A stretch of DNA of 59,266 bases, the filler included, from Dugesia japonica (lineage: Eukaryota), in assembly GCA_001938525.1 (NCBI GenBank). It is 6 parts of 6 records of this genome, joined end to end, with 100 filler letters (N's around TTAATTAATTAA, not from the genome) between each part and the next. Parts side by side here need not be neighbours in the genome. Positions count along the whole stretch, not along the records: positions 48,307 to 59,266 come from MQRL01637103.1; 5 more parts are not named here. One strand, 5' to 3'. Positions 2,552 through 58,300 of this stretch are shown piece after piece. Numbering within the stretch: the stretch's first letter is position 1; each line of letters starts with the position of its first letter. Position numbers and translations under genes: made by a program. The notes below the pieces were generated by a model, which was given only the letters and a program-made list of their open reading frames with translations, did not search any database and was not told where the DNA came from.

Positions 2552-2804
2552 ATATTATAATATAAATATCAATAATCTAAATTTTGGCGCTAAAATAAAT
2601 AAAGAATTAGATTTTAATCATTTTATTTAAATTATTTATTTTATTATCCGAGTTCATTGTCGCCATATTTGAATTGTTGCTTTAAAAATAGCAAAAACTT
2701 TAAAAAAAGAAAACCTTTATTTAAACAAAATTATTATTCATCTTTAAAATAAAACCAATTTTTTAAAATTACTCTAGTTGTTTATCCGAGCATATCGATA
2801 TACA

Positions 2805-6779: not shown

Positions 6780-7165
6780 AAAGAAATTTGGAAAAACGTG
6801 AAAAGTTTCTTAAGAATGCGGATATAAAGACAAGGTACTATGCGGCTATGTATTGTCGTGCAATAATTTGAAATGCCAAGACGTCCATAGATTAATCCCT
6901 TTCTTCCTCATCTTCCAGATAAACATGTTGATTAATTGTCTGGGTCTCAGGAATAAATTCATAATGTATGAGATCCTTGAAATCAAAGAAAATTATAAAC
7001 ATGCATTTGATTTTTGATTGGAATATCCTTGCAATATTTTAGACGGGTGACATTTCCACTCACCAATCCAGATTTTGCATTTTCGTTTCAGATTCACTAT
7101 CAGAAATCCATGTCTCATCTCTCGTAACAACACTCTCAATTACCAAGTTGTCATTAAATTTAACT
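6780..7165 (-). mobile_element. mariner transposase relic
   Basis: Minus strand reads VVTRDETWI...SKIKCMFIIFFDFKDLIHYEFIPETQTIN, matching mariner TGDETW and SKIKxMxxxFFD motifs. Contains stops. Confidence 0.75.
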
Positions 7166-7199
7166 AATAGGTACAAAGTCATATATAGGCAAATTAAAG

Positions 7200-8557
7200 A
7201 CGAAGGGGCTTAATGAAATTAAGGAAATATATTGGAAGTGCGAAACAGAATTGGACTAGAACAACTTCACGAGAAAGAAATAACCGTTTTTGAATTGGCA
7301 GTTAGTAGGTACTTCTGAAAACTATTCTACAGTTTTCTTTGAAACAATCGATTTGTGCTATTCTTCTCTGCTAATTTTCTTTCCAAATGCTTATTAACTG
7401 CTTTTTCAAGTTGATTACTAGTTTGTGGTACAATACAATTTTATTTCTGGTAAATGTTTGCCTAATCTGATGTTCCTGTCTTCAGAAATGTGACAAATTA
7501 AATCTCGAAATAATATCATTCTCAACTGTATTTTATTAGATTGCACTATGATAAAACGGAATTGAAAAGCCATGTTTAATGTCTTATATACAAATCATCA
7601 AATAACCTTTTAATCAAAGGCTTTTCCATAATATAGACTTATCTCTCTTGGGAATCTAAATCTAAATATCTACACCTTAAAAAAGCATTCTGTAGTGCTT
7701 TCTCGTTTTGTCCAGGTGATGTCATAAGATACAAATATTTAATGAACCGGTTTATAATTCTTTAAACGTATTTTTACCCATTTGTTTCATGCATCGGTAT
7801 ATATATATATGAATACGACTTAAAGAAGTTTCTCAGTTTCTAATCTTTTCATATCTTTCTTAACTATTGTCATCATTACTTTGACTCTCTGACAAATTTC
7901 ACAGCTAAAAACATTTTCCTGTAATTTGTTCCGAAAATTCATTACTATGTATTTGTCTCATATATTTGTACAACCTTGCTATTTCTGCAAAATGGTCGCC
8001 ATGTTAGTTTTGTTTGTTTTCTTCATTTAAATAAACTAAAATAAGACTTTTGATTCAATACTTTATTTAAAATACAAACAATTCTTTTTTGAAATTCTTC
8101 TTGCTTTTATGAATGCTTTTTCCCAGTTTACAAAGTTTTAATATTAATATTAATATTAAAATAAAATTTTAAAAAATTCTGGAAAAAATTCAAACCAAAA
8201 TTATGATAATTAAGTAAATGTAAAAATGGATTAACTTCAGACAATATGAATAAACCTAAATTGTGTATATAAATAGTAGAAATGTTAAATATTATTCAAA
8301 GTAAGATTAGTGTCTTGATATCTAGCTACTTACAAATAAAATATTCACACAATTAATTTAAGTATATGAAAACTTTTAACAAACTTGGTTGCCAGTAATG
8401 ATAGTTCCATAATACATCACCTAATCGGTTATAATGCAAGACCATCCAGAATGCTAGTAAATTTGTTGTTTAAGTAGTCACTAGAATTATATAATTGTTT
8501 TTTATTTAATTCATTTTGATTACTTAATCGATTATGTAATATTTTATCGATTACACA
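7200..8557 (-). mobile_element. Internally deleted Gypsy element: LTR (~8002-8557), PBS and integrase relic
   Basis: 7993-8130 is the reverse complement of the LTR end/PBS seen at ~17130-17264 (...AACTAACA|TGGCGACCA). The PBS is followed directly by an integrase zinc-finger remnant (SCEICQRVKV) and core-like fragments. The outer LTR boundary is approximate. Confidence 0.7.
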
Positions 8558-9439
8558 TTTTTTTTTCATTTACTTTGTCTGATTTTTCGATCGCATTGCG
8601 TGCAGTCTTAAACGTATCAATAAAAATTTGGTATTAATAGATGAGGAGGTAAAAAGTTATTTAAGATTAAATACTAAACCAGGTGCCATTTTGAAAGTTA
8701 TGGCTTTAACATTTATACAATTCAAAAGAGAATTAAAAAAACTTTTTATACATCATCTGAAGTACTTGTTTCAAAAATTGCTTTTTTCCTATGAAAATCA
8801 CCTTTCAAAGTATGAGTGAACTGAAACATTCCTCCCTATTCATTATGGATTTCCTTTAAATTTAAGGGTTAGATAGAAAATTCAAAAGTAAGATACGATT
8901 GTATCTTAAAATGCTTAGTCTCCTATAAAATTGAATTTTTTAATTTTTTTTGAAACATATTCGTCCCACTACTAAAATTTATTTAATAGCATATAATTAA
9001 TGGTAATGTTTATTATTACAATCAAAACTGATTGCACCTACAGATTTCCTTTTCAAATTTTTCTTCTTATCAATGTACCTTTCGCCATTGTTATCTTCAT
9101 TATGATATTTTTCAAATATTTCATTACCAATTTAATAAATATATTTTACCTATAGCTTCAACAAATTTTTCCTTCTCTTCTTCTGACGATGCATACCATT
9201 CTTCTTTTTCAATCATTTCTATATCATTTTGTTTAACTTTTTCAACATCTACTAAAATATCGTTACACATTTGTTTTGAAATAATAACTTTAATAAAATT
9301 GTATTCCTAATATATATGTTTTAACAACTAATTAGAATTATCAACCAATCATATGTAAATTAAACATATAATTCATAAACACATAAATGTATATAAGTCT
9401 TAACTTGTAGAAATAAAGCACCTTTTAAAAAATGAAAAT

Positions 9440-10004
9440 ATTAAATACCTCATCGTTAAAACAGGAAGAAATGTTGAAAGAAATAAAGCTTTGGGTACGA
9501 GATAATCAGGAATCAAGTAATGCATATATATGGAACAGATTGCTCGATAAAACATTGGAAAACTGTTTTCAACGTTGAATAATTACTTAACCCTAAATTA
9601 TGAGGATTACATCAATACATGCAAATCAAAGGAAGCCCAAACTCCTAAGATTATAAATATAATTTAAAACTGTTCATCAACAAATTTATGAAGATGTCAA
9701 ACAATGTGGTATTGTTATATAGATATCGGTTAGAGAAGAAATTAGAAGCTGGTCTACACGCGTTCCTTAAAATCCAGATTTTAGACAACTTAGTTATCCT
9801 TCGAAAAGAAGAGTGTAATGAAAAACTTGCATTTAAAATGGAATCATTGGAAAACAACAAAAAAACAATACCTGACATAGACAAACTCAAAAATTAGAAT
9901 TATTATAAAAAACAAGAAAAACTTTGATCGACGCTTTTATTTAAATGAATTCTGAAAAACTATCAATGGTTACATCCAACAATTATTCTCGCAATATTTG
10001 TAGT
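9440..10004 (+). mobile_element. Penelope-like element 3' relic: degenerate GIY-YIG tail plus pseudo-LTR
   Basis: IYE..KQCGIV(YI) and GLHA...LDNLVILRKEE...ESL resemble the PLE GIY-YIG C-terminus. It is followed by a repeat (TCAATGGTTA..CAACAATTATTCTCGCAATA) shared with 14150-14245 and with the hammerhead-bearing element at 54280-54608. Confidence 0.45.
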
Positions 10005-10978
10005 TATTAAAATATAAAATTAAATTTATAAAAATTAAATTTCATACTCAAGATTTTACTATAAAAGTTAAACAGTATAGTTTATAGTACTATACTATAC
10101 TATAGTACTGTTATCAGTGCAATTCAATTCAGTTAACAGTATAGTTGTATTAAAAACCGTTTGTATTTTTATGCTTACTTATGTTTTCTGTGATAATTTA
10201 GAATTATATTAAGAAGCATAAAATCGGTTTAACTAAAACTTTAGGTTTATCTTATTAAATAATTTCAATAATTTTATTAACACGATTTATGAGTAAATCA
10301 ATTATAGTGTTGATAATTTAATTTTAAAAATATTTATTTCTAAAATAAACTTGATTAAAAATATATTAAATATACTAAAGCTTATTTTCTTGGAAAAAAC
10401 AGACACTGGTTATTTATTCAATTCCGATTAATTTCTGAATAATTGCTCAAAACTATAAATTTATTATTAACAATTGGCGCAGAAAAATATTGAAATTATT
10501 AATTACTACCAAAGAATTTCATGAACATAACGATAAAAGGAACCGCAATCATCTGATGATATTTAATTAAACTTCTGTTAATGTGAAATTCTATTAATTT
10601 TCCACACTTCTGCACAGAAAATAATTTACAATGTTAATATGTTTCTGTTATGTTAATTAAAAATAAAATAATATAATTAATCTGCTTTTTCATTTCATAA
10701 CAAGCTGAATTGCTTTCTTAAAAACATGGAAATTTTAAATTAAAAAAAATTATTTTAATTTCAATTTTAAAAATGATTGTTTGGGAATGTAAAATTTATC
10801 GGTTATTAAAGTTATAATTAATTTATTGTTAATTTATTAAACCGTGTCCCGCATAATTATGAGAAATTAAATAAATGGAATTGGTGCAATTGAATATAAA
10901 TGTTACGAAAAAGAATTAAACTACAATACAATCATTTGTTTAAATATGAATTTGTTTTTAAATATAATATAATATAAT

Positions 10979-11023: not shown

Positions 11024-11123
11024 NNNNNNNNNNNNNNNNNNNNNNNNNNNNNNNNNNNNNNNNNNNNTTAATTAATTAANNNNNNNNNNNNNNNNNNNNN
11101 NNNNNNNNNNNNNNNNNNNNNNN
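11024..11123. other. Artificial contig linker (N44-TTAATTAATTAA-N44); others at 20245-20344, 29948-30047, 39312-39411, 48207-48306
   Basis: Identical 100-nt structure five times; the 12-mer gives stops in all six frames. Confidence 0.95.
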
Positions 11124-11990: not shown

Positions 11991-12652
11991 TTAATAAAAC
12001 TTTTTCTCGGAAATATGTAATCCATTTATTATAATATTTAGCAAGATTGTTTGAATAGTCTAAATCTTCAATAAATTCAAGTTCAATAGCCAAACACGAC
12101 GCAGCATAGTATTCAAGAAATGATGCTTCGGTTGGTTTGAGAACATTCCAATTGAAATGCTAAAATAAGCATTAATTATAAAAATTGTATATTTATAAAA
12201 TTTTACTTGTAAAACCAGAATTTCGGTGGATTTTAATAAACAACTTTGCATTACATTTTCAAATGGTGCAAGTCGAAGTATTTTTGAAGCTTGCGGCACG
12301 TTAATTTCCACATCATTAACTTTACCTAAATGTATTAATTATTTACTGGCCTTAGAGACCTTTTACTCTTACAAGCGACAGAAAAACAAGCTGCTCCAAT
12401 TAAATACAAACCTTGAGCGTCAGCTTGATGGTCAGCAATAAAATAATCAAACAAAAATACAGCTAAATGATGAGCTTCTACTCCGATTTTGAATGATTTC
12501 ACTAATTTACTTATCCACTGTACAATTATTTTACGATCTCCATTTGTAAAATGCGGAGATTCTCTCACCAAAATTGGGTTTTTTTCTTCAAGGTTTTTCA
12601 AATAACTCAAAATCAATTCATAAAGCCAAACATCATCAACTTCAACAGACAT
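11991..12652 (-). CDS. CCNJ: Cyclin J-like protein, 5' three exons (12373-12652, 12207-12325, 11991-12159)
   Basis: Two 47-nt GT-AG introns give MSVEVDDVWLYE...ESP...AHHLAVFLFDYF...LYLIGAACFSVACKVNDVEINVP...EILVLQHFNWNVLKPTEASFLEYY...YFREKVL. This is collinear with cyclin J as I recall it (QSP..ARHLAVYLLDLF..ASKFEE..VP..FQWNL..PTAAHFIEYY). Further exons not identified before the linker. Confidence 0.8.
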
Positions 12653-13489
12653 AACAAACCATTAATAAATCGTTTGGAGAAATCATTTTAATTAACAAAA
12701 TAATTTTATTAGCAATTTATTTTCAATGTTAAATTTATTGATATATTAAATTGGAAACTAAAACAAACTTATTTGGTTTTTGGCGGAATTTAGTGTTTTT
12801 ATTTTTTATCATACTCTGCATGATAAAATAGTAAAATTCCCTAAGTTTTCTTTAAAAAATAACTATACTTTGAAATTTTTAAGGAAAATAAATTTCTTAA
12901 TCAATTAATCATAATATAATATTACTATGTTGTATATAATGTTAGTATTTGTTCTATACAAAATTTAAAAATAACTTATAAATTACTTATAAAATGTAAT
13001 TTGAAATTTAAAAGAATTTATACAATAATTTTAATTAGTTAAAAAAAAACACTTTTCCAACTCTACATCAGGAAAAAACAGTAATTCTCAATTAGATGCG
13101 GATCCAGGCTATCTTGTAAGGAGCGATTTGAACAAATACTTATGATAAAATATTATTATTATTCGTTACTACTATACAGTGCTTCTATAATTAGTAATGT
13201 CAATTAAAATAATAATATATTACTGCAATATCCTATAAAAAAAGATGGCGAACATATGATACGCGTGTCAGAGGAGACACTCAAAGTCATCGATAGAGAC
13301 NAAAAATTACATAAAACAAATATTTGTCTCTACCAATGGCCAGTAATCATTCAAACAATATAATTACTCACGCTATTCATCATCAATAATGCAATTCTAA
13401 AACCGTCTCTGAACGTGTACATCGGTTTTGCGTACATTGTTTGAATATTGACATTAATATGTAAAAGTTAAGAAATGCGCTAAAAAGAG

Positions 13490-14110: not shown

Positions 14111-14149
14111 GTGGTAAAGTAACGACTTTATTATCAAATATCAATAAAA

Positions 14150-14245
14150 AAACCAAAATTTTGATTAAAGCTTTTATATTAAAGGAATTCTATAAAACGA
14201 TCAATGGTTATGTTCAACAATTATTCTCGCAATAATTGCAATTGT
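14150..14245 (+). repeat. Copy of Penelope-like pLTR repeat
   Basis: Near-identical to 54457-54608 and similar to 9900-10004. Confidence 0.7.
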
Positions 14246-29947: not shown

Positions 29948-30059
29948 NNNNNNNNNNNNNNNNNNNNNNNNNNNNNNNNNNNNNNNNNNNNTTAATTAAT
30001 TAANNNNNNNNNNNNNNNNNNNNNNNNNNNNNNNNNNNNNNNNNNNNTGATTTATTCAG

Positions 30060-35849: not shown

Positions 35850-38800
35850 CTCATTCGATCAATATAGAATGGTGACCATATGCCACACTGCTGTTTTTCC
35901 CAGTCCATTTCCTCTTGTCATCAAATGGATCTAGCGCTTTCTTTGATGATTTAATGGTGAAGAGCTGGTGATCACCGATCCAATTCTTGTTTGGTCCACT
36001 CTTTTTTCTTTTCCATTTTCATAGGCATCCACGAAATCTTGATGCTTTATCGATGTTTGTTTTAAGGATACACCTTTACTTTTCATCTTGGTTTTGGTAT
36101 TCGTTTGCATTTAATACGATTTCGGACGAAGACAAATCCATTCATTGAAATTTGATCGGCCTTCATTTTCATCTTTAAATTTACCGATGACCGCAGTTAA
36201 TGTTGATAAATAAAGCGGATCATCTTTTTTGAAATTGGAGGTGTCCAAAAACCGGTCTTCTATCATTGCTGGGAGTAACTGATTTCGCTGATCGACATTT
36301 TTACATTCGAGAAAGAAGCTATCTGTATNNNNNNNNNNNNNNNNNNNNNNNNNNNNNAACCTTTCTCTATAAGTCTGTAACTCCTCATATTGAAGCTTAT
36401 ACATCCTGACTTTCGATAGATCAAGGACAGCTTGACCAATATATGATGGCCTATCTAATGTCACTATATCTTTTACCATCAAAACTGCCACTAGTTCATC
36501 ATCAATTTCGACTGTATCCTGGAATTGTGGCTTGCTGGCATAAGTCAATAACTTCTTAGCATTGTTACAGAGCTTCAAATTAATTCTTCTTAATAAATTT
36601 TCGACAGTTTTTCCATATAAACTGTGGTTTTTCAATTTATAAAAGTCTTTCTCGAACGCGTTGAAACTTTTTGCTCTTTTTTCAGAATTAAATTCAATGT
36701 ACGATTTGAAAATACACACTTGACTGAATGATACTGCTCTTTGTATCTTCTCAACTTTTGCACCCAATTTCATAAATAACTCTGAGAGACGATAATGAAT
36801 GACATAATCTTTCTTCGTTTCATGGGCCAAAAGTAACTTTTTGACTCTACTTCCTGGTGGACATTTATTTATAGAAGTAAGTGGCAATTGGTCCAACTTG
36901 CCGTGTTCCTCAGGTGACATTTCTAAATTTACCTTGAAAAAAGTCCACGTTCATAATTTTCAATATCCAAATAAGGCAGGATTTCAATCAGAGTCTTCAA
37001 ATGTTCTTCGTCGACAATCCATTTGAAATTACCATATGGTAATGGCTGACTCAACGCCCAGCCGTACAGGTTGTTGATGTCAATATATAAGAGACTTGTA
37101 TTGTCATCTGCAATGACCCTATGTTTATTAACAAAGGTCATCCCTCCTCTTATACCTGACTGGAAAAAAAGGGCAACTCCGGGTCTTGTAACAATTCAAT
37201 TTTAAGTGTGCATGTTTTGATCGCCGTAGCCTAACATAAAGCTGGAATTGAAATAAAGTTGGCTGGTTCGAGTCCATCTAGTTCCTTGACTTGAGATCGA
37301 AATTGTTCAATAATATCAGCCAATAAGTATATGTCCAATTTCATATATATTAACATATACTGCAACAAATTAGCACATTTATATTGCTCCCAAACTTGTT
37401 TGGCATCATCATATTCTTCATCGGTGATATTATCCCATTTTGATGGTAAGCTGATGATTGATTTCAGTTCTTGAAATGGTTTAGCTAACGTGTATGGAAA
37501 CACACCTTTTCCTTTTATGATATTTGTGGTGAATGCTCTTTTTGTCTGCGGATAATCTTGCAAGTTTGATGCTAGTGTCTTCAACGATGCTGATAAAAAT
37601 TGAAATAAATCCAAAAATCTGATGGATATGGTTTTTCCTTTGTCCATTTTGATGTATGCAGTTAGTGTTGAAAACATTTCTTTCGTTTGCGGGATCACAC
37701 TTAAATTATAACTGGCAAACTTGCTGATTGCAAGCTTGAGGATATGGTGTAGATCATATCCTTTAAAATTGTGACAAAATACTGGCAACATGCATCTGAT
37801 TTGTCTGCTTATGTTGCATTTATTGCAAGAGGCTCCAAGATATTAACCGCTAATATGACAATTATCTTTTACAAATTTATTATAAATTGTCGTCTTTTTC
37901 TTCTTACATAAATAACATTCATTCGCATTCTCAAAATCATTTGTTGAGATGTTAGAGAAGACATTGGCACTTTTGCATTTTCATACCATGTTGTGACCTT
38001 GGTTTTTGCTATTGACTCTAATGCTGAAATGAAATTTATAATGCATTCTGGTCCAGTAAATTCTTGATAACTGATTGCTCCATTTGGCCCCAGAAGCAAC
38101 AAATCCGCCGATGCTGGCATATGAATACTTTTATGTATTTCTGATGGAATCAACACCGATTCAAAGTCGGCATAAACGATATAAGGTGGGCTGATTGTTT
38201 TGGAAAAATCAGAAAACTCACAATACTTGTTACCTGGCATTTTGTATAATGTTGTAAATTTGTCTTGAGAATTACACATGGTAAAGGTTTGTCGTAGCCA
38301 ATTTTATATCTGAACCCATGCAAGCATTTGTGGCACCAGAACTGACATTGAATTCGGAATCCACTTTCTTTATCTCTTAAATTGAGGAGGCTGTTCAAAT
38401 TTGTTATTGCCAAATAATGCTAGTTGTTGTTATTCTCTAAAAGAAGCAAGTTGATTTGTGTTCCATCTTGATTCTTGCTTCTATAAAACAAGTCAATATA
38501 CAGATTTTTGATAATATCCACTTCATCGGAAATATCCACTTCGTTATTGTATTTGAAGACATTGATGGCATACTGCGGATTATTTCTTTCGAACTTTGGT
38601 ATATTTTTTATTTTCATTGGCATATCTTCTTCTTTTGAAAAATAAATCTCTTATAAATACGGCTCATAGTTGCTCACTCTTTCCCTATGATGTTTGATTA
38701 TGGAATACTTTTAAACAGCTAAAATGCTGTAAATAAAACACAAATTGTCCTCATTCTGTACATTGATTGTTGCATTTGATTTGACCAATGTTTCTGGCGA

Positions 38801-39311
38801 TTTGATGAAGCTTCGACCAGAGAGATACAGAATTACACTAATATTGATTAATTTGAAGCAATAATGGAGGACTTTTACGATTTTCCATCCACTTCCCATT
38901 TCACTGTATTTTCTACCTTCTCTGCCAAAACTGGAGAAATGTTTTCGATGAAGTTTGGGTGAAATTCAACTAGTTTATGAGACACATACCATTCTTTTGT
39001 GTCACATTCTAGATTTTCGAATAGAATTTTGAGACCATGAACGATTTTTCAATTTTCGAGTTTTTCTGCTTGTTCACACACTTTTTCAATAAAGCTTGTC
39101 GGAAGCATAATTTCTCTGGTGTTGTTTCGACTGATATCAAAACACATTTCGATATGGTTGCCGTTCATAATTATTGTGATTTTCTGATAATGGCAGCTTG
39201 GTTTTGATGATTTCGCTACTACCGATCCTTTTCGTTACCGATTATTTTCAAGAACTGTTTGAACTGGATTGACTGATGGACCTGGATTGACTGATGGAAT
39301 TGGATTGATTG
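35850..39311 (-). pseudogene. Maverick/Polinton (adintovirus-like) protein-primed family B DNA polymerase, near full length, disrupted
   Basis: Exonuclease motifs VYADFES and HNFKGYD; KGVFPY; IRGG; LLYIDINNLYGWA; KLKNHSLYGKT; (D)TDSF; LRPKSY; KGV; FDDKR...AYGH. Endonuclease VII-like DNCHISG.YLGASCNKCN insert and N-terminal NEDNLCF motif. Several stops and frameshifts. Confidence 0.93.
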
Positions 39312-40750
39312 NNNNNNNNNNNNNNNNNNNNNNNNNNNNNNNNNNNNNNNNNNNNTTAATTAATTAANNNNNNNNNNNNNNNNNNNNNNNNNNNNNNNNN
39401 NNNNNNNNNNNATAATGCAGTTCATAATTACAATTTATAATCATCGAATAAGAAAATTACAAAAGTGAAATCTCTGTTGTAAATTATTATATTTTAACAG
39501 CTATTTATTATTATCTACCACAGTAGTTACCAGACGTTTGTGGTTTGCTACGCTTTTAGTATATCAATATTTTTTCACGGTACCCAAAATAAAAATATTG
39601 ATCTATTATTATGCAAGTTTTTAATTATAACTTTACCAGTTATTCATTCTTCTTTTATAGCAAGGNNNNNNNNNNNNNNNNNNNNNNNNNNNNNNNNNNC
39701 GGCTCTAAAAAAGTTTGTTGATTTGCTTGAATTTATGATTGTAAAATATAGTAAATGAATCGCTTTGGTTTTTTTGGTTATTTATTGTTTATAAAAGATA
39801 GTTTGATCCTAAAAGATTTTTTAATTTAGTAGTTTTTTACCGAACTTAACGAAAAATTATTTATAAAAGCTTATTGAAAATATTTGAGTGCTCTTTTATA
39901 TAGCTTTTATTAATATATCAATATTTTAGACATTCAAACAATATCACTTGTACTGTACAGCCGTTGTAAAAAAATCGATATATGGCTAACAATAGCTTAA
40001 AGGCTGTCTTTCATTGTGTTATGAGTTTGAAGTCCTCATCGGATAATTAATGTCAAAACTTATTTCCATAAGAGATTTATTCACAAAAAAAAACTATAAA
40101 CATAAACTTGCCTTTTTCAAAAATATTTAAAAATTGATACTTAAAAACGGAAAACATCAAATATCAGTATTTTGTAAAATATTTTAATTTAAAATTTGTT
40201 TAATGTCAAATTTTAAAATACAGTAAAAAACACATTTCAATGACAATATTTTATTCTATTTTTAATTTAAAATTTTATCTTATTTTATTTTATTCAAAAT
40301 TTTATTAATGTCAAATTTAAAAATACAGTAAAAAATATATTTTATTGACAAAAACAAAAATTTGAAAATTTTAACAAAATTACAAATATTTTAATACACA
40401 TTTATTAATTTTATAAATAACGAAAATGTTAATTTATTTATTTGATAAATTATTTTTATGATACAAATTTAAATATTTAACAAAACTGATTTCAATAAAT
40501 ACAAAAAATTCAAATCCGCTTGTAAAAACTATCTTACATATTGATTTTAACAACATACCTGGTTTTACTGGGAAATTCATAAGTGAACACAATTATTTTA
40601 TAAAAAATATATTTTACTAAAAATAAATTCACATTAACATTAACAATACATTGAATACATGCAAATATTATTTATTATCAAATATTATTTATAATCAAAT
40701 ATTATTCGACGAAAATAATTTCATTACATAAAAAAAAATTTACAAAGTTA

Positions 40751-43700
40751 TTATCGAAAATTTGTTAAATCACCAAACAATTTCGGTTTATTAAATCGAG
40801 AATTAACATTAAAATTTCTAACAACTTTAATATCTTCTTCTTCTTCTTCTGTTGTTGTTGTTGTTGTTGTTGTTGAAGACCACTTATTGTTGTCTCGTTT
40901 TGTGATTGGAGGAAAGAATGCACGCTTTTTACTTGAAATCGTTGAAGATGATGAAGGTGAAACTACACTGCTCTTAATGGAATCTTCAGACGAATTGGAT
41001 TTGTTGAAAATAAGCTTTGATGGTGAATTATAATTCGTTATGTTTCTATCGTATGTTGGTTTTGGTGTAGAATTATTTGATGAACTGTACGGATGAAATT
41101 CGGAATTTTCATACTTTCTTATTAGATTTGCAATATTTGATTTTATATTCGGACGAGAAAGTTTGGGATTTGTAAAAGTGTCAAAATAAAGTTGTTTCTC
41201 ATAGAAAGGATTAATATTTCTATTGTTTCTATTTTCAATATATATCTTATTCAAGCTGCTTGTTGAATGATTCTTTTGTAAACTACCTCGACTACTTGAT
41301 TTAATCAAATCAGTTGTTCCAATTAACGTGCAAATATTCGTTTGACTTGTTGATAAACTTGTTTGATGACTTGCTGGTTTCATACCTCTTGTAATGGAAA
41401 TTTTATGTGTTGAATTAGACAAACTACCTTGACCTTCTATAACAACCTCAGTTTGACTCGATGGAAACTTCCAATTTAATTCGGAATTATTGAAACTTGG
41501 TAAAGCTGCCAATTTTCGATAATCGAATTTATCGGAAGACATATTTTTCGTGACATTTTCTAAAAATTTGGATTTTCCATTATTAACATTTTTAATGAGA
41601 CAATCGAATGAATTTGATCTTTTTAATAAGAGTTTTTCTGATGATATTGTTGCGTATATGCTATTTTCTAATAATTTATAAAATATTTAATAAATTAATG
41701 AAAAAGAACAACAATACCATCTGTAGTATTTATTCCAATTTCTTTACCTTCTAGTTTCTCATTTCTGCGCATAAATTTACGTTAATTAATAATTATCATA
41801 AACAATCTATTTTTCATTACATCATGTATTCCAGTGGTCTCAAACTCAAATCATTTCTCAGACCGTTTTATATAAAATGTGGGCCACATTAATTCTGCAA
41901 CTGACTTTAACACTTTATACCACTGTATACAACGCTATTAGTATTATTAATTAAACGTATTATATTAAATTGAATTTGTTAGATATATCTTATAAAAGTA
42001 ATTTATTTTCGAACAAATTAATAATTTTAATCCATTTCTGTTTGCCGAAATTCTACATTGTGGGTCGCATTTAAGCTCTTTGTGGGACGCGTATTTGAGA
42101 CCCCTGGTGTACTGTATGGTATTATATTATATTACATTGTCAAAGTAAACTGTCTTAAAAATTGATTAAGACCGCAGTATTATTGATTACAAATGATGAT
42201 TTAGAAGGTTGCTTTAGATCAGACCTGGCGAACCCATGGTCAAGGACGAATCCACAGGAGAGCGATGGGGGATATCGCCGCCCATAACCGGATTTCGAAA
42301 AAGATATATAATGATAAGGAGCGACTATCCACGTAAATATTAGGATAGTAGTATGATAACGTAAAGAAAAATAATTAAAAACAATTTTGTATCAAAAAGT
42401 CGAAATAAATAAGATAAAATATTTGTTGATAGATAGTGGCGCACTAAATAACATCCCCGAATTACAAAGTGGTTTAGAAATTCGGTTTGAGATTATGGTT
42501 TAGTAATTTAGAATCTACATATATACTGTAAAAATATTAAATACTAAAATGATAAATTAAATAAATTTTATAATAAAAATTAACCTTATACTTGTTTGTT
42601 TTTTATTGTTATTTTCATTTATTTCCTCGGGAATACGTTTGAGCGATTTCTACCCCTGTTTTTTTTACTCAGCATAAAATTCTCTATTAAATAGATGGGT
42701 TGATGATAAAATTTGAAATACTTTTTATTTTTCGAAAAATCTATGTAAGATATTGAAAAAACCAAAAATGACCCCCGTCAAATTCTTAACAGATTGGTAT
42801 AAAAGTATTTGAAATCAGAGCAAAAAAATTATTTTTGAAAAACTTAGACTGTTCACCCGTATTCCCATGAAAATTTGATATATTGTGAAAGTTACGTTTT
42901 TGGTAATTATTCGCTTTTTTAAAATTTTTAACTATTGATCTCTGAATGATAAAATTAAATATTTTCAAAATTAAGAAAATAAAATAAGGCTTAGATCAAA
43001 AAATGTTTTTTAAAATTTTTTATCAAGTTTACACATTTCAAAAATTTAACTTACTTCCCCAAATGTTCGAGTTTATCTTCGTCGAGAGTTGTGATTGATC
43101 TATTCGATTTATTTAATCACAACTCTTGAAGAAATAAAATCGAAAAATTGGGTCGAAGAAAATTAAATTTTTGAAATTTTTTTTCATATTAAAATTTATA
43201 AAAACATTTTTTGGCGTAAGTCTTAGTTAAATTTCTTCATTTTGAAAACATTTAATTTTATTTTTTTTCTAATTAAATATTTAAACATAACGGACTTATC
43301 TACTGGATTTCCGTGAAAATTAATTAAAAATTAATTTTAGTAAATGTAAACAAAAAATCACTAATTTCCCTTTATTTAAACTAAAAATTTAATTCCCGGT
43401 CAATTGTATAATAAACTACATAATTATTTTAATATAGCCCCCTTATGAAAAATTCCTGGATTTGTCGCTGCCCACGACTCATTGCAAAATAGTTTGTGGC
43501 TCACAAAACAATTTATAAATATCTATAAAACAGAATATTACTAAAATAAAAAATGGATATCTTAATTACAAAGTTTCTTTTTTAGACCCTTTTGCGGCTC
43601 ATTAAATTTTAGAGTTTTTGTTTTCGCTCATTATTTAGTTTCACAGAGATTCCCCAGAAACTAAAGAATGAAAGTTCCAAATTAAATTGCTCTAAAGTTA

Positions 43701-47300: not shown

Positions 47301-48559
47301 CTAGACCAATTATAAAATTTATATTAATTGATTAATTATTTTCATTTTATTTTATATTATTTTTATATCAGATTTTTATTTCCAGACTACTTTTATTTTA
47401 CCACTGCTATATTCAAACTTGTGGCGATAAAAATTGTTCTAATAAAAAATATATAAATCGAAAACATAAGTTAAGCCGCTGGTTGAACATCACCATTATA
47501 TTATTCGTAAATTATAGTAATAAGTAATAAATATTTCATTAAATATTCTTACATAATCAAACCAAATTAATTTGATTGAACCTTACATATAATTTTATAT
47601 TTTAAAAAGAATATTAATTCAAAATTTTATTAATTTTTAGAAAATTAGGCATAAATATCAAGATTAACAATAATATTCCCATTCCCACTTTTTATGAAAC
47701 ACAGATATTACATTAAAAAATCTTGTTAAGCCTCATCGTTTTATTTAAATAAATATCCAATGAAAATTAAATTAACCAAATGAACTTATAAATCTTTATT
47801 TGTATTTTAAATGATATATTATTATTTTAAAAGTATTCTATTTAATACTTTTAATGTATTGTTAATATTATTATTAGTATGTATATATATATATATATGG
47901 GGTACCATGGAAATAGTTCTAGAATTCCGTGCCATTTTTATTATTTTTAGCCCTACGTACCAGTATATTTGGCATGCGTAGGGTTTAACATTAATAAAGA
48001 CCAAGCATTTTCACATAAGATAAAAATGGTAGAAAAATTAGTTGCGAAACTCAAACTAAAAATATAAAACAATTAAGATATTTTCTGCGGGGAAAACGAA
48101 AGATTTCTTAAATGAAAAAATATGAAAACATATTATTAGTTTTTGCCTTTATTTGTGTATATATATATATATATATATTGTCTAAAATTTTTTATTTATT
48201 TTTTTANNNNNNNNNNNNNNNNNNNNNNNNNNNNNNNNNNNNNNNNNNNNTTAATTAATTAANNNNNNNNNNNNNNNNNNNNNNNNNNNNNNNNNNNNNN
48301 NNNNNNATTGAAGATGAAGATGTCAGTACAAACGATGGATATGAGGAACCATATGAAAGTGATTCCGAAAGGCAGGGCTCCACCAGTAGAGGAGTTGGTT
48401 GAAGCCATCCATTGAAAAAAATTACGAGCTCAAACCAAGCATGAGCCTCAAAAGTTCGAATTTTTGGACCCCTAATTTCACGCAGTTTACATATACACAC
48501 ACATTTTATTTTACACAACTTCTTTTAACATGCCATGTTTTTATTTTAGTTCATTATAA

Positions 48560-50225: not shown

Positions 50226-53200
50226 AACTCTGGTATTTTCAATGATGGCAACAAAAATGTTGTTAACATATGAGATAATTTAGAAACATGTTTCTTTTCA
50301 CCATCCAAAATATGATTAACAATCTATAAATGAATTATATATTAAGATCTAAATTCAATTATATTTACATCTGCTTGAAAAGTTAACAAATGACTGTCAC
50401 TTGATGTTTTAACATCTGATTGAGGTGATCCATCTTTTTCCTCATCTACAATTTATAGATTATTTCCTCATTTTCATGCATTTAATTCTAATTAATAGAA
50501 TATCAAATGAAATTAATCGAGATCAATTTGTATGTTCAAACAAAAACTACCATAATATAATTTATATTTTTCACAAATTCATTAAGTCGAATTACAATGG
50601 AGTACCTTATTGAAAATTTTTCCAATTACCAAAATTAATGGAAACAACAAAAAATTGCATAATTTTTTTAATAAAATGTGAATTTGTTAAGTTTTCTTTA
50701 AATTTAATTTTATGTTAAAATTTTCTTTAAATATAAAATACAGTATAAACATAAAAACCAAATTAAATACCGATTATTTTGTATTTGTGAAATATTGGAA
50801 AAGATTTTGTTAAATATTATGATTCGTTTGATTTCTACCTAAAATGAATACTTTAATTAAGCAGATAAAAAATGGGAGCTCCAATTTAGAATTTTATTAT
50901 TTTCATTTTTGGTAAAAATATGTATCATCGTGGTATTTTTAGATAATACATTAATCATATTGGGTTGTCCGGAAAGTTCGTGACGAGTTATAACAAAAAT
51001 TCCAAAGTAACACATTTAAATTTCAAAATGCATTTATTAAATTAAACATTTGCCATTTTGATTCGCAGCCTTTCTCCATCTTTCATGCAACTTAAAGATT
51101 TCATTTTCCCCGAATATATCAGGTTTTCTGGCGAAAAAAATATCAAGATGATTTTCTATATCAATCGAAGAGGTAAATTTTCGACATTAAGGGAATCTTG
51201 ACAAGATATATATATATATATATATATAAGTGGAAATATGTAAGTGGAACCCGCATAAAGTGAATAAGGCGGATGGAGTAGAACTTTCCAACCGAGCTCC
51301 AAACCCTTTTCTAGTAGCCAAAGACGCACAAGGGCGTTTATTGTCCTGAAAAACCAGAACTCGGCTCTATTGCCAAGAGCTCGAAGTTTTCTTTCAATTT
51401 ATTTGTTTAATTCGTCTAATTACAAATAATACGTTTCGGAATTTATCGTCTGATTAGTTGGTATAAGCTCATAAAATAAAATTATTTGCCAGTCCTATCA
51501 AACACCAATCATAACTATTTACGAATGAAGACCGGCTTTTGCGGTGGTTAATGATCTTTTCCGCTGAGCATTATTATAAATGATCCATTTATCATCTCCT
51601 GTCTCTACTTGCTTCAAAAATGATGTCACTTTGTTTCGTTTATAGAGCGACTGTTAGATGTTGATGTCATCCATCAAGTTCGTGTTGAATCCATATATCT
51701 AAACGGTTTATATATCCAAGCTTCAATTTTAACTAAAATGGTGGTTTTCAGTATATTTAACCTTTCTACTGATTCTTATTCTCGATAAGTGTTTTGCTTT
51801 GATCTTCATCAGTGGTGCTGGGTCGTCTCAGAAGTTCCTTGTCGTCAAGGTTAAACTCATCAGCTTTAAACCTAGCAAACCCCTTCCGAACAATTCTCAG
51901 ATAAAGCACATTTACCATAAACAGCTCATAATTTTTTTGCTGCTTGTGTAAAAAAAACCATCAAATTCTTATAATGAATTTTATTTTCTTCAATATTTAA
52001 ATTGGTGTAATAAATTGTGATGATTATTTTACCAAATCATTATATCTTTATTAATTCACATGTCATTTGCCTTTTAGATAATGTATATATGTAATTTGTT
52101 TTCATTCATTCCTTTATATTAAAACCTGTTTAATTCAACACACTGACAATCAGCACGAACTTTCCGAACAACCCAATATTAATTCATTAATTACTTATAA
52201 TTATACTAGCAGTTTATATAACATCGCATTTATAGTTGAAAACGTAGCATGTGTAGAGCCATTAACTTTTAGAATTTAATTGAAAATAGTTTTCAATAAA
52301 ATATTACCTATATTTTTAAAGAACTATTTATAAAATATTTATTTAATAAACACCAAGTGGTTTGAGAAATCTCCTTAAAATAAGAAAATAGATCATAAAA
52401 AAATTTCAATGAAAATCGATTTTCTGATTGTGAAATTTTGTTATTGGGTTGCAACATAATTTTAAATGATTTTATTTTTTATTGCAATTTGTAGTTTATT
52501 TATCCACAACATTTTTATTTTTGAAAAAAACATCATTAGAAATCCTTTTTGGGCTCTACAAAATCTCAGTAATTTTATGTCAGTAAATTTTATTCAAATC
52601 CTAAAGCTTTTAGAAATGTAATGCCAAGTAGATAAGAAAACAATATTTTAGATATCTACTTTTATTTGCTTTTAATGAGGTCTAAAAGTTTCAGAAGTGG
52701 TCCGAGATATTTGTGCTGTGTACGGAGAAAGTGCAATGGCCGGGAGTACTACAAACGATTGCTTCACAAAGCTGCGAAATGGCACATTCAACCTTCAAGA
52801 TAATGGCCACTCCGATCGACCACCCAAGTTCGATGAGTTTGGAAAACTCATCTGATCATTAATATCAGAACTCGAATTCATTACAAAATTTATTCAAACA
52901 AAAACTATGCTTAACACTATTTGTTTATTCAAACAACTTAAAATCTCGTATTTTCATTGGTGATCATTTATTTAAAATTTTAAATCGAAATTTTATTTAT
53001 TTAAAATTAATTTACATTAATTTATTTAAAACATTTTATTTATTTATTTAAAATTTAGGACAAAATTTTCGTTCACGTTAAAAATTTTATTTATTAAAAA
53101 TTTTACTTTATAAATTCAATCGTTATTTTTGAAATTTAAAATTGAAACTTTTATTTATTTAATTAGCCAAATTTCCGTTTACTCAAAAAATTTAATTTAT

Positions 53201-56200
53201 CATTAATTTATCATTATCATTTAAAATTTTCATCAATAATTTAAATCTCTCTTAAACAAAATATTTTAAAAATATGATCACCAATCACACAAAAATCTCA
53301 ACTTGCTTTTCAAAACACACTGACAATTATTGTAAAAAGAATTGTTCTAAATAAATGTTTTAAATTATCATGTTTTAAAAAAATCATATAAAATTATGTT
53401 GCAACAAATAAAATCGATTTTTAACTGGGAGTGAATGCACTCCAAGGAGAGCGAGAAAGCATTATTTGAAATTATCAATGAAAATTATAGACAGTAAGAG
53501 AAAGAAAATATTAACTTAGAACAACTGGCAAAAGCAGCATTTCAAGCGCTTTTACAATTAGCAACTACTTACTTCTGTGAAATCGGTTTTTTATCACTGT
53601 TTAAAGAAATAACTTGAAATGAATTTAACTTTTTAATAAAGATATTATGCAACGAAAACTTATTTTGAAGTCAAAAGAGATGTCCGCCTACTAAAAAGAT
53701 AAAGAACCACTGTTATAAATTAGTAAAAATAATCGCATAAAATTTATTAAACGTAAGGAGGCTTCACATCACTTTAGACCAGGGATGTCCAACCTGCGGC
53801 CCGCGGGCCGCATTGCGGCACACTCAATGTTTGAATGCGACCCACTATCGACTCATTAAATTTTTTTATTTTTTTAGCAAATTTATCAAGTAGTGAGCAC
53901 AAGAGTCTTCATGTAATTTAATCAAAATACTNNNNNNNNNNNNNNNNNNNNNNNNNNNNNNNNNNNNNNNNNNNNNNNNNNNNNNNNNNNNNNNNNNNNN
54001 NNNNNNNNNNNNNNNNNNNNNNNNNNNNNNNNNNATTTTTAAATTTTCTTTGTTGTTGAAATAAATACATTTTCAGTAAACTACGGCTCAGTATACCTAT
54101 TAATGGTTAATTTCTTTTTCAGTTTTGCGGCACAGTTAAATATTTAAGTTTGCAATGCAGCCCATTAAATTAAAAGGTTGGACATCCCTGCTTTAGACTT
54201 AAATTTATAATATAAAAGATTAATTTCCTGGTAAATAACAGAAACCCAGATGTCTATAAGGATTAGATATTCATAAAATTGAAGTTTATAATCAATTCAT
54301 TTAATATAAAAGCTTTGATCAAAATTTTGGTTTTTTTATTGATATTAGATAATAATTCGATATTTCGACCTTGTCTTCGTGGGGAATTGACTTTTAAAAA
54401 ATTGACTTTTATAAAAAGTCAATTCCTGACGAAGACAAGGTCGAAATATCGAATTGTTATCCAATATCAATAAAAAAACCAATATTTNNNNNNNNNNNNN
54501 NNNNNNNNNNNNNNNNNNNNNNNNNNNNNNNNNNNNNTATATTAAATGAATTCTATAAAACGATCAATGGTTATGTCCAACAATTATTCTCGCAATAATT
54601 GCAATTGTTTATATAGAATATCAAGAAAAGAAAAATATGATATGAAATTTTTAAATATAACAATAACTTAAAAAAATTCTATTTTTAGTAAAGAAAACAT
54701 CATCATGTGATTTAATAAATATTTTCAAGTAAAGATAGAATTTTTACTACGTAGTGTAACTAACTAGATTTTGGAATAATTACTAACCTAAAATAAGATA
54801 CAAATGAATGTTAAAATGGAATTTTGTTTACAAATACCGATACACGAAAGGTTATTTAAAATTTATAAATTAAAATCAAAGATTATATTACAAAACCTTT
54901 TGCGTAATCACTGTATGAGTTGTATATTACTTCTGAAATCGTAAAAATACCAAAAATATTGTGCTGAATAAAAAAAACAACAAGAAATCGAATACAGAGA
55001 AATAATTTCACCTTGGAGATAATAAAAGTAGCATTATTAAAATATTCCTAACAAGTACACTATGATAGGTTGAAACTGTCACAGAACTTATTGATCAACC
55101 TATTATGTGATTATTAGGGCAATTTTTAGACCTAAAAAAGTACGATTTTAGAACTTAAATTAAACCTAAAAAATATATTGAACTGTATTTACATTTAAGT
55201 TTAGCGTTCAAAAATAGATTTATTACCGAATATAAATATGGCCTAAAATACATTGTATTATTGTTATTAGAACAATCAATTACGACATTAAAACATTAAA
55301 ACAACAGTNATATAATGAATTTTATTGACTTATTTAGANCTAAAAACATTTTTTTAGACTATTTAGACCAGGGATCAGCAACGTGNACCCNCCGAAATTT
55401 TTATTTCAGAAATATGTCCGACTACTAAAAAAGGCTGCCGACCCATGCTCTAATGACAGTGAAACCCACTTCTACTGAAATCGTTAATTTTTCTTATCGA
55501 AACGTATAAATCGAAGTATTTCTCTGAACTAATCTCTACACATTGTTCAGAAGCTCCTCTAGCGTACAAAATTGCTATAAAGGCCCCATAATTACGATTT
55601 TGTTACTGTCCAGTCTTTTTTCAAAACTTTACGAGCTTCAGTGCACGANNNNNNNNNNNNNNNNNNNNNNNNNNNNNNNNNNNNNNNNNNNNNNNNNNAT
55701 AATGAATTTTATTGACTTATTTAGAGCTAAAAACATTTTTTTAGACTATTTAGACCAGGGATCAGCAACGTGCACCCACCGAAATTTTTATTTCAGAAAT
55801 ATGTCCGACTACTAAAAAAGGCTGCCAACCCATGCTCTAATGACAGTGAAACCCACTTCTACTGAATTCGTTAATTTTTCTTATCGAAACGTATAAATCG
55901 AAGTATTTCTCTGAACTAATCTCTACACATTGTTCGGGAGAAAAAAGGATGTCATCCCCTCAGAACCTCCTCTAGCGTACAAAATTGCTATAAAAGCCCC
56001 ATAATTACGATTTTGTTACTGTCCAGTTTTTTTTCAAAACTTTACGAGCTTCAGTGCACGATTTGATATATTCCATTATAGTTTCGTCGATTATCAGATT
56101 AAAAGCACTCTTTACAGTACCAAGTATAATATTTCATTTGGCATAGGAAGTTGGCCCCGATACGTCTTTGAATTTGGTATTACCGATAAATTTACGAGTA

Positions 56201-58300
56201 TTTCTACCATCTTTCACTGTTTTCCATAATGTCCCATCAGCAACGTTTTGTGTTGAAATTTCTTCATTATCAGATCCATCTGCAGTGTCTAATTCACTTT
56301 CCGTTTCAAAATCTGGAATATATCGTACTCGGTTTATGCCAGGAGTTATATAACGATCACTATCACAATCACTTGATTCACTTTCTGATAGAAAACAAGC
56401 TCTTCTTTTTCTCGGAGTTAGTAAATTGAGAAGTTTGAACATGAAAACTCTCGCATCAGAGTGTTTACAAAATTTTTTATGCTCAAGAAATAAGTTACAT
56501 ATGTAAAATGGCAAACTTTAAAAGTATTCAATGAGTCAAATCGACTCGCTCCGTCAATCCAGTGTCAAAGTGATCTACTGTTTCCGATTGACATCAGTAT
56601 TGACATTTGTTTGCACCTATTTGCGATGAAACTTGCAAAAATAAATTGTAGAATTTATTGATCATCATGAAAAGCCTCAGAATGTTGCGACCATCAGTTT
56701 CAAGAATAGTAATTCGACAGAAAAAATCTTGGAACATCTGAAAAGAAAGTTTGTCCAGGACGCCCACGCAATATTCATACAAAGCAATTCAAACTGAGTG
56801 CATCGAAATCTACAACTGAAGTGTCGTAAAATGACTGAAGAGCTTCGAAAAACTCGAATGACGATTCATCGAGTGCTGAAAAATGATCTTCGATTGAAGG
56901 TCAAACAAGCAACAAATTCGACAAGAGATTATCGATGAGAATAAGATAAATGCAAGCAGGCACGAGAAAGGTAGATTCTCTTCTAAGACGAGAAAATCTT
57001 CTCCATTTCTCAAAAGTTGAATAAGCAAAATGATAGAGTCTATGCCATTGCCATAAAGGTTTGTTGGGAAACAACAATCGGCGAATCAATCATGGTTTGG
57101 CTAGGAATTTGTGGGGATGAGAAAACTCACGCTATTTTGATACCTCAAGAAGCAAAACTCAATGCTTAATTAGTAAATAGATCCACACTGGGCCACCTCT
57201 CCACCCACCCTGCCATTGACCAATGAGATTGAGTTGAGCCGATTACTGTGTTATTAAGTATTAAACTGCATAAATTAATAGGCTACTTTGTATGTGATTT
57301 CGAATTTTGAAAATTATGTGTTACGTAATCGACTAAACTCAATCTCATTGGTCGCCGGCAGGGGAGGGCGAGAGGTTGCTTAGTGCGGACGTATCTACTT
57401 AAATCCTATCTGAGCTTCAATTTGGAGAAAGGAGTGAAGCTTTTTGTGTTTTAATTGCCATGATTTGCTTCGATTGTTCAAGTTTTAAACAATCTTACGC
57501 CGGCGTTCGTTCGTTCAAGCTGCAAATTTAATATTTTACTCTCATTATTGCAGACCATTATCGAATTTTTAGACTACTAATTTATTTCTGGCGGTTGATA
57601 TACTTAGCTAGTGAATATATTTACTGAATCAGATTCCATAATCGATTTTTAAACATAATGAATTAGATTATTTCGTTTATTTAAAATAGAAAACAAATAT
57701 TTCTTTATTAAAATATAAACAAAGTTTCATAATCTCCTAATTAAGAATTATTAAATCAATATCAGTAAGAAATTCAAAATTGAATAATATTTAAATTTTA
57801 TAAATTATTTTTTTCGTGAATATTTTGTCATTCTTATTTCTCATTGGATAATTTCATCATTTCAAACTATATTATTCTAGTTAATAACAATTAATTATTA
57901 TAATGAAAAGTATCAATTAGAAAAAAACAAATTTATTGGTATCTATTTTTGCAATCAAATTAGAATTTTACATTATTACAAGTTTGTTAAAAATTATAAA
58001 CTAACCTATATCAGTAACATAATTACTCGGAAACCATCCTGTGACTTGATCTAAAGTCCCTTCCCACCAGCCACCATCAATTTGTTGAGTAAGCGTAATA
58101 ACATCATTTTTATTGAAAGATAGCTAAATTACATTGGTCAAAAAATACTGTGTAAAAATGTAGAAACGTCATTTTATACAAAATATTAATTGACTTCATG
58201 AAAACGCTAAGATCTAAAATCCTGAACATCTTACTTCATCATTATGTCTTCGAATATAGTCAAATAAGGCAGTCACTTTTTTAATTTTATTATTTGCCAT
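50226..58300 (-). CDS. ARHGEF7: PIX/Cool-like Rho GEF, N-terminal exons: 58235-58300, 58006-58123 (SH3), 50369-50445, 50226-50323 (start of DH domain)
   Basis: GT-AG splicing with consistent phases gives [71 protein letters not shown]...[32 protein letters not shown]. The SH3 matches beta-PIX (DELSF.KGDVI...GGWWEGTL...GWFPSNYV) and is followed by a DH helix-1-like segment. Later exons not found before the linker. Confidence 0.78.
50960..52176 (-). mobile_element. Full-length decayed mariner element
   Basis: TIRs TTGGGTTGTCCGGAAAGTTCGTG / CACGAACTTTCCGAACAACCCAA with TA on both sides; ~1.2 kb; [11 protein letters not shown] and [10 protein letters not shown] motifs. Confidence 0.92.
52444..53408 (+). 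mobile_element. Internally deleted mariner element
   Basis: TIRs TTGGGTTGCAACATAATTTTA / TAAAATTATGTTGCAACAAA; HTH remnant RDICAVYGE...GTFNLQD...RPPKFDE. Confidence 0.8.
53430..53712 (+). mobile_element. hAT (Buster-like) 3' fragment
   Basis: [25 protein letters not shown]; ends in AGAACCACTG. Confidence 0.6.
53780..54190. mobile_element. Young hAT MITE
   Basis: Perfect TIR CAGGGATGTCCAACCT and perfect 8-bp TSD CTTTAGAC. Confidence 0.95.
54280..54608. mobile_element. Head-to-head inverted Penelope-like pseudo-LTRs
   Basis: ~54290-54400 is the reverse complement of ~54410-54555 (partly in a gap); each arm begins with a hammerhead motif. Confidence 0.75.
54420..54456 (+). ncRNA. Minimal type I hammerhead ribozyme (Penelope type)
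   Basis: CAATTC-CTGACGA-A-GAC-AAG-GTC-GAAA-TA-TC-GAATTG: intact core, 3-bp stem II, palindromic minimal stem III, perfect 6-bp stem I. Predicted cut after C54450. Confidence 0.75.
55756..55834. mobile_element. ~80-bp hAT-type MITE (duplicate at ~55368-55447)
   Basis: Ends CAGGGATCAGCAAC / GCTGCC(A/G)ACCCATG. Confidence 0.55.
55870..56564 (-). mobile_element. piggyBac 5' half relic
   Basis: Terminus TTGA|CACTGGATTGAC (decayed TTAA); acidic N-terminus; GPTSYAK...SAFNLIIDE...FIAILYARG...[15 protein letters not shown]. Confidence 0.8.
56590..57420 (+). mobile_element. Tc1/mariner (DD37D/maT-like) transposase relic interrupted by a MITE
   Basis: ILF.DEK.F...NKQNDRVY...[12 protein letters not shown]...KLNA|KSYL. 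Confidence 0.7.
57172..57399. mobile_element. 228-bp MITE with AGT termini, ~75-bp TIRs and inferred 6-bp TSD (candidate Maverick-derived)
   Basis: Left AGTAAATAGATCCACACTGGGCCACCTCTCC...GACCAATGAGATTGAGTT; right reverse complement AGTAGATACGTCCGCACTAAGCAACCTCTCG...GACCAATGAGATTGAGTT; flanks TTAATT / TAAATC. Confidence 0.75.

Follow-up and report, generated by a model that had tools for sequence, protein, structure and literature searches.

The hairpin at 54294-54608 of the analyzed window (the whole stretch of 59,266 nucleotides of Dugesia japonica DNA) is very probably a head-to-head double insertion of an abundant hammerhead repeat of about 160 bp, likely a terminal piece (pLTR plus tail) of a Penelope-like element (PLE), with a broken core in one arm that is likely neutral. 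Such a fold-back hammerhead insertion is of a known kind, and the locus is an ordinary, dead insertion.

The plus arm carries a complete minimal type I hammerhead (54420-54456), antisense to the host gene, that is composed of the following parts:

54420-25 / 54451-56, plus strand: stem I, 6 bp
54426-32, plus strand, plus arm: hammerhead core CTGACGA
54433, plus strand, plus arm: extra A between positions 9 and 10.1
54434-42, plus strand, plus arm: stem II GAC/GTC with a 3-nt loop, G10.1–C11.1 being G54434–C54442
54443-46, plus strand, plus arm: GAAA
54446-49, plus strand, plus arm: helix III ATAT, palindromic and loop-less
54450, plus strand, plus arm: C17, after which cleavage is predicted

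The plus arm fits the consensus CUGANGA ... GAAA ... UH with helices I and II, whereas the minus arm fails it due to U4C and G5C. The motif search proposed in the preliminary description was run with a hammerhead descriptor: on both strands of the whole window, the plus arm was the sole match, and one out of 150 Markov surrogates of the window yielded a match; no hammerhead family was matched in the Rfam search. With all core and stem parts found, the earlier claims of a complete hammerhead in the plus arm and of its minimal type I form with a palindromic helix III (ATAT at 54446-49, extra A54433) are upheld. The signs of the PLE type listed in PMC4209133, namely, the extra base between 9 and 10.1, the G10.1–C11.1 pair, and the palindromic 15.2-16.2, are present as well. 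The minimum-energy fold of the 37-nt stretch consists of stem I and stem II (-4.6 kcal/mol), a different fold is predicted to be preferred when five to six flanking bases are added, and the drawn active dimer of the motif has a predicted energy of -4.8 kcal/mol vs. -15.5 kcal/mol for the best dimer fold.

An inverted copy adjoins the 5' end of the unit in head-to-head orientation, an arrangement recurrent at other loci. The features of the insert and the further family copies in the window are as follows:

54413..54608, plus strand: full repeat unit with the hammerhead at its 5' end, about 159 bp if the gap is taken as 13 bases
54488..54537, no strand: assembly gap of 50 N, real length about 12-13 bases, as estimated from the mirror arm
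54581..54601, plus strand: 3'-terminal stem-loop of 8 bp, predicted fold, in the full arm only
54294..54395, minus strand: inverted second copy, in the sense orientation relative to the host gene, 3'-shortened by ~56 nt
54353..54389, minus strand: core-mutated hammerhead motif (U4C, G5C), the 54353 variant being common to other copies
54396..54412, no strand: junction spacer with a further inverted copy of the first 11 bases of the unit; 15-nt tandem duplication at 54385-54414
54284..54290, plus strand: candidate left TSD GTTTATA, partner at 54607-54613; weak, AT-rich, overlapping the unit end
14128..14245, plus strand: second family copy in the window, 5'-truncated directly after the hammerhead cut site
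9860..10017, plus strand: old decayed family copy, 70-84% identity, degenerate core

The inverted repeat (54322-54401 and 54408-54487) is 91% complementary over 80 nt; seven out of 80 positions differ between the arms, namely, two at the junction, U4C, G5C, the last stem I pair (54353), and two further downstream. The core of the minus arm reads CCCACGA, with U4C at 54382 and G5C at 54381, in agreement with the earlier claim of a near-identical minus arm at 54353-54389. Changes of U4 and G5 abolish hammerhead catalysis. The last stem I pair of the minus arm is lost at 54353, the same change being found in the copies at 14128 and 9860, and the arms differ at sites that are polymorphic in the family (54353/54456 and 54347/54462), so that the second arm may stem from another template or from later conversion.

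A palindrome had been described at 54280-54608. Its right end at 54608 was correct, but the left arm covers 54294-54395 only, and thus the arms are unequal. Extension of the left arm to 54278 was rejected as not significant (102 out of 1500 null stretches score as well); the one-sided extension of the full arm is about 56 nt, and would be 40 nt only if this extension were accepted. TSDs are optional in PLEs; here, comparison of 280 position pairs in AT-rich DNA gave a single perfect 7-mer, the TSD candidate listed above. In run X2, the flanks of the insert are matched by single-copy contigs, at 54173-54318 with no differences and at 54588-55213 with five. As the CC dinucleotide is seen at the locus in none of the run contigs listed, the CC core rests on the assembly.

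We surveyed the family in contigs of public sequencing runs aligned at 80% identity (X1, X2, and X6, from DNA, and X8, probably from RNA), which yielded 21,895, 29,922, 28,764, and 5,998 family contigs, respectively. The points at which family contigs and reads pass into unrelated flanks accumulate before 54413 and behind 54608; these fixed ends indicate that a single arm, rather than the whole hairpin, is the mobile unit. About 121 nt of the unit lie 3' of the predicted cut site. The depth summed over the motif is about 150,000 times that of the unique flank, which is not a copy number, as overlapping contigs are summed, and should be taken only as thousands of copies or more. The depth at the 3' end of the unit is about 2.5 times the depth at the motif, which fits frequent 5' truncation of family copies. 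Exact-pattern scans of metagenome, viral, and prokaryote contigs for the family yielded nothing, and two matches to a 20-mer from the 3' end of the unit (L001 and L002) were rejected as due to chance, being 23-26 bases only, in bacterial-looking DNA.

Contigs with U4 changed and G5 intact are present in four out of four runs (depth at least 370, 963, 834, and 154), and a letter other than that of the family at G5 has depth of 67, 447, 198, and 45 in these runs. Stem and loop variants mostly fall in loop II or form tolerated pairs, e.g., 54439 G>A and 54442 C>T among the top ones, and 54420, 54438, and 54439 among the others listed, the linkage between variants not being shown; one core variant is among those listed (54427 T>A, three reads).

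The joints listed for other loci include head-to-head ones (54337>54446 and 54341>54446, up to seven to eight contigs per run), centre deletions at 54397-54406, and one head-to-tail join (54598>54411), and the junction centres vary among the loci. At many other loci, the head-to-head junction lies at the equivalents of 54445-54453, on a small palindrome (54441-54452) spanning the cut site, and fold-back priming at cleaved RNA ends, or close to them, may be what this cluster marks.

Family RNA was analyzed in three runs with oligo-dT or cDNA libraries. Reads matching the unit (seven in X21, 290 in X22, and 231 in X23) are in both orientations and derive from other loci, as 97-100% of them continue into unlike flanks and there is no depth on the unique flanks of the locus. 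U4 differs in none out of two reads in X21, three out of 49 in X22, and none out of 45 in X23, the reads having been filtered at 97% identity, which favours intact cores. At 54450, the predicted C17, six molecules end in X23 against a depth of 23, with the first mate on the minus strand; this is the only site where many molecules begin or end, and the pile-up is seen neither in X22, which comes from the same study, nor in X21. If the X23 library is stranded as usual, this is a weak hint of RNA 3' ends at the cut site, with the six molecules being possible duplicates of one and oligo-dT selection expected to lose such products.

The host gene is on the minus strand, and its exons, as well as the intron that contains the insert, were delineated as follows:

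58300-58235, minus strand: exon 1, from GT-AG and phase
58123-58006, minus strand: exon 2, SH3 domain (Pfam E 2e-10)
50446..58005, minus strand: inferred intron 2 of the PIX-like gene, from GT-AG and phase, not spliced reads
50445-50369, minus strand: exon 3, from GT-AG and phase
50323-50226, minus strand: exon 4, from GT-AG and phase

The best PDB matches of the exon 2 SH3 domain are ARHGEF7/beta-PIX (E 7.6e-14), consistent with the claimed position of the element in intron 2 of a minus-strand PIX-like gene. Pfam showed no match for the open frames over exons 3 and 4, nor PDB for exon 4. No RhoGEF or PH domain was found by Pfam in 40 out of 64 short minus-strand frames at 39.9-50.5 kb; the 24 frames left out include 22 in transposon-like stretches (45.3-46.6 kb and 48.3-49.8 kb), with two overlapping-frame groups in the 40754-41686 ORF region counted among those left out. 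There were no RNA reads on the unique intron flanks in the 6-26% of each run sampled. Since the gene runs on the minus strand, the mutated motif is the sense one. The preliminary description was right in this respect, but it had the inactivated copy as the one present in the pre-mRNA, and the pre-mRNA holds both arms.

Several other observations on the window were made in passing. The gaps at 11024-11123, 20245-20344, 29948-30047, 39312-39411, and 48207-48306 are identical, each with 12 bases between two stretches of 44 N; in the last of them, these bases (48251-62) provide stops in all frames. The gaps are probably artificial linkers, so the pieces on either side of them may come from separate places, and the PIX-like gene may be interrupted at 48.3 kb. 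Approximately 100 bp to the left of the hairpin lies a short element (53780-54190) with 16-bp TIRs and a perfect 8-bp TSD (53772-79 / 54191-98), which we take to be a hAT-like MITE; a related terminus recurs near 55368 and 55755. The stretches 55312-55648 and 55699-56061 are 97% identical and flank a gap of 50 N; this duplication is likely artefactual, from an overlap in the assembly or from haplotypes. The inverted repeat at 57172-57399, with 75-nt arms (79%), is GC-richer than the intron and is probably another fold-back transposon remnant. Broken minus-strand frames at 36114-38965 encode a protein-primed type B DNA polymerase (Pfam DNA_pol_B_2, E 1.5e-11), presumably Polinton/Maverick-like, and a cyclin gene lies on the minus strand at 12063-12661 (Pfam Cyclin_N, E 1.9e-13; relative P0001, 86% identity). 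At 9649-10017, an 82-codon ORF (9649-9894) ends inside the old family copy, which supplies its last codons and the stop. This ORF could be a spliced host exon, as AG is just before it, or a Penelope ORF remnant; it has no Pfam match, no protein relative, and Atlas scores of at most 0.77, so that these comparisons lend no support to its possible reading as a GIY-YIG remnant.

The preliminary description had suggested selection against self-cleavage of the host transcript, a claim that we consider unsupported rather than refuted. That the sense ribozyme cut the PIX-like pre-mRNA enough to matter, with U4C and G5C being favoured by selection, seems highly improbable. It is indeed the sense motif that is mutated, the antisense one being intact, and the only clearly private change of the minus arm strikes the core; the post hoc probability of that (an 11-nt core in the 102-nt arm) is 0.012 for two independent events, but 0.108 for one event, and adjacent substitutions may be one. 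Six RNA molecules ending at the cut site in one run hint at cleavage in the family. As cited at second hand in PMC2995048, processing can be aborted by fast ribozymes in introns; splicing reportedly tolerates intronic cleavage by a hammerhead, but not by a fast HDV ribozyme. Tandem retrozymes are depleted in Xenopus introns, yet 42-44% of them are intronic, orientation being absent from the main text (bioRxiv 2026.07.22.740005), and this depletion makes selection on genic ribozymes not far-fetched. Conserved intronic hammerheads in amniotes are a different case (PMC6155905).

However, at predicted equilibrium the pre-mRNA strand (known bases) folds at -94.4 kcal/mol, and nine out of nine stem I and stem II pairs of the sense motif have probability 0.000000, with the motif predicted to be fully sequestered by the arm transcribed first. 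The broken core is likely neutral, since folding of the motif in the host transcript is predicted to be prevented in any case. Moreover, activity is expected only with a dimer partner (the dimer view of minimal hammerheads is reviewed in PMC6765202), and the motif has none in cis, with no second sense motif in the window; a schistosome monomer was inactive and dimers were weak in vitro (PMC4209133). U4-changed copies are present at other loci, polyA RNA contains intact cores of either orientation, and the case is a single locus chosen after the fact. Given the U4-changed contigs, and since the copies at 14128 and 9860 share the stem I change, the template of the arm may already have been altered.

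Two other explanations concern the origin of the hairpin itself. The unit might be a SINE-like or retrozyme-like element with its own promoter, rather than a Penelope fragment, the hairpin resulting from two separate insertions. A short transcript standing on its own is compatible with the sharp 5' end at 54413 and with the high abundance, two templates would be expected to give arms that differ at family-polymorphic sites, as these do, and no coding partner was found. We nevertheless regard this as unlikely, because the motif has the minimal form seen in PLEs instead of the canonical form of retrozymes, the copies are dispersed with unrelated flanks and one head-to-tail join among the joints listed, and recurrent head-to-head junctions are a PLE hallmark; besides, this explanation overlaps the preferred one if a Penelope protein mobilizes the unit. 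Far less probable still is an assembly artefact at the gap edge that created the mirror arm or its CC core. The insert does hold an N gap, there are duplicated gap flanks in the window (55312-55648 and 55699-56061), and no listed contig shows CC at the locus, but there are seven differences between the arms over 80 positions, a single-copy contig (54173-54318) of X2, a run that could be the source of the assembly, agrees fully with the left junction and the beginning of the inverted arm, and a letter other than G at position 5 has depth in all four runs.

Related classes of elements were also considered and rejected. An animal non-LTR retrozyme does not agree with the absence of head-to-tail tandem units and the unrelated flanks at both unit ends, with the one head-to-tail join among the joints listed. 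A MITE or a microRNA hairpin is at variance with the mobile unit being one arm, hence with no TIRs, and with Rfam miRNA scores of 42.7 and 32.9 bits vs. cut-offs of 75 and 60.

The preferred explanation is a double insertion of what is likely a PLE terminal piece. The earlier reading of an inverted Penelope-like pLTR stands as to the head-to-head layout, which recurs at other loci; as for membership, no RT or GIY-YIG endonuclease ORF is found at the locus or linked to the repeat, and hence we only infer it. In the proposed sequence of events, an autonomous Penelope RT/GIY-YIG protein encoded elsewhere in the genome would have nicked AT-rich DNA, reverse transcription would have started near the 3' stem-loop of the unit, and self-priming or a template jump at the 5' end would have produced the inverted second arm, with the duplicated 11-mer in the spacer as its trace. 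For PLEs, it has been shown that reverse transcription starts in a stem-loop downstream of the hammerhead, that AT-rich DNA is nicked, and that cleavage is protein-assisted, while ribozyme mutants had no effect on insertion by the Poseidon protein in vitro (PMC11167929); self-priming has been proposed for PLE inverted copies (PMC3846280). In the PIX-like pre-mRNA, the antisense arm would emerge first and zip onto the sense motif, so that, whether the core is changed or not, the product of the locus would be a long, uncleaved RNA hairpin in the intron.

Unlike the locus, the family has some value as study material. The function of PLE hammerheads has been called unclear (PMC8557442), and RNA-seq ends at the hammerhead cut site were not found in PMC11167929. 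No test of whether intronic PLE hammerheads are inactivated with a strand bias was seen in the literature searched, mostly as listings. With thousands of dispersed copies that are nearly identical and in many cases transcribed, the family would lend itself to a cut-site search in suitable RNA libraries and to a sense-versus-antisense test, and in vivo cleavage by PLE minimal hammerheads is a question that the family could address. The boldest reading, in which the unit is a stand-alone ribozyme SINE at very high copy number that undergoes self-cleavage in vivo when one transcript pairs with another, as the RNA ends piled up at C17 would reflect, at a genome-wide cost, with intronic sense cores preferentially knocked out, is, in our opinion, very unlikely; if it were true, the locus would be one case of many, and strand-biased selection on ribozyme cores would be directly measurable.

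In order to place the repeat among known systems, we compared it with three published groups. Hammerheads of PLEs carry the extra base, G10.1–C11.1, and the palindromic 15.2-16.2, are mostly dispersed single motifs, and have been reported in opposite-strand pairs (PMC4209133). The minimal hammerheads of that study (Cervera and De la Pena, 2014) share with the motif considered here type I, the conserved core, the extra base, G10.1–C11.1, the loop-less palindromic helix III, and the mostly dispersed distribution, and the opposite-strand pairs of Schistosoma mansoni, 100-700 bp apart, resemble the hairpin. The differences are helix II of 3 bp here vs. 7-8 bp in the schistosome families, helix I of 6 bp vs. 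4-5 bp, and an abundance that looks above the 2,000-9,000 motifs of PMC4209133, although the figure obtained here is not a copy number; in addition, no PLE ORF is linked here.

Animal non-LTR retrozymes (Cervera and De la Pena, 2020, PMC7229834; Li et al., 2026, bioRxiv 2026.07.22.740005) are likewise short non-coding type I hammerhead repeats, probably PLE-derived. In contrast to those of PMC7229834, the unit forms no head-to-tail array, has a minimal rather than canonical motif, and shows no evidence of circular RNA in libraries that are oligo-dT or cDNA.

Published descriptions of endonuclease-positive (EN+) PLEs include an inverted copy next to the 5' end and a tail of 30-40 bp on one side only (PMC8557442, PMC3846280), and the Penelope, Poseidon, and Neptune elements (Arkhipova et al., 2013, PMC3846280; Craig et al., 2021, PMC8557442; Frangieh et al., 2024, PMC11167929) have in common with the hairpin the head-to-head 5' copy, the palindromic junction, the extension at one end, and the AT-rich target. 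The one-sided extension is about 56 nt here vs. 30-40 bp in these elements (PMC8557442, PMC3846280), and the distance from the hammerhead to the 3' end is 121 nt, compared with 85-92 nt, as obtained by subtraction from PMC11167929, i.e., in the class of about 100 nt. Unlike EN+ PLEs, the hairpin has no ORF between the repeats, making it the smallest possible unit, and its TSD is uncertain. By analogy, the stem-loop at 54581-54601 is a candidate counterpart of the Penelope "tail" region. Since the motif type, the 5' inverted copy, and the 3' stem-loop agree with published PLE features, the layout matches that of PLEs and, by the same analogy, would work like a minimal PLE insertion.
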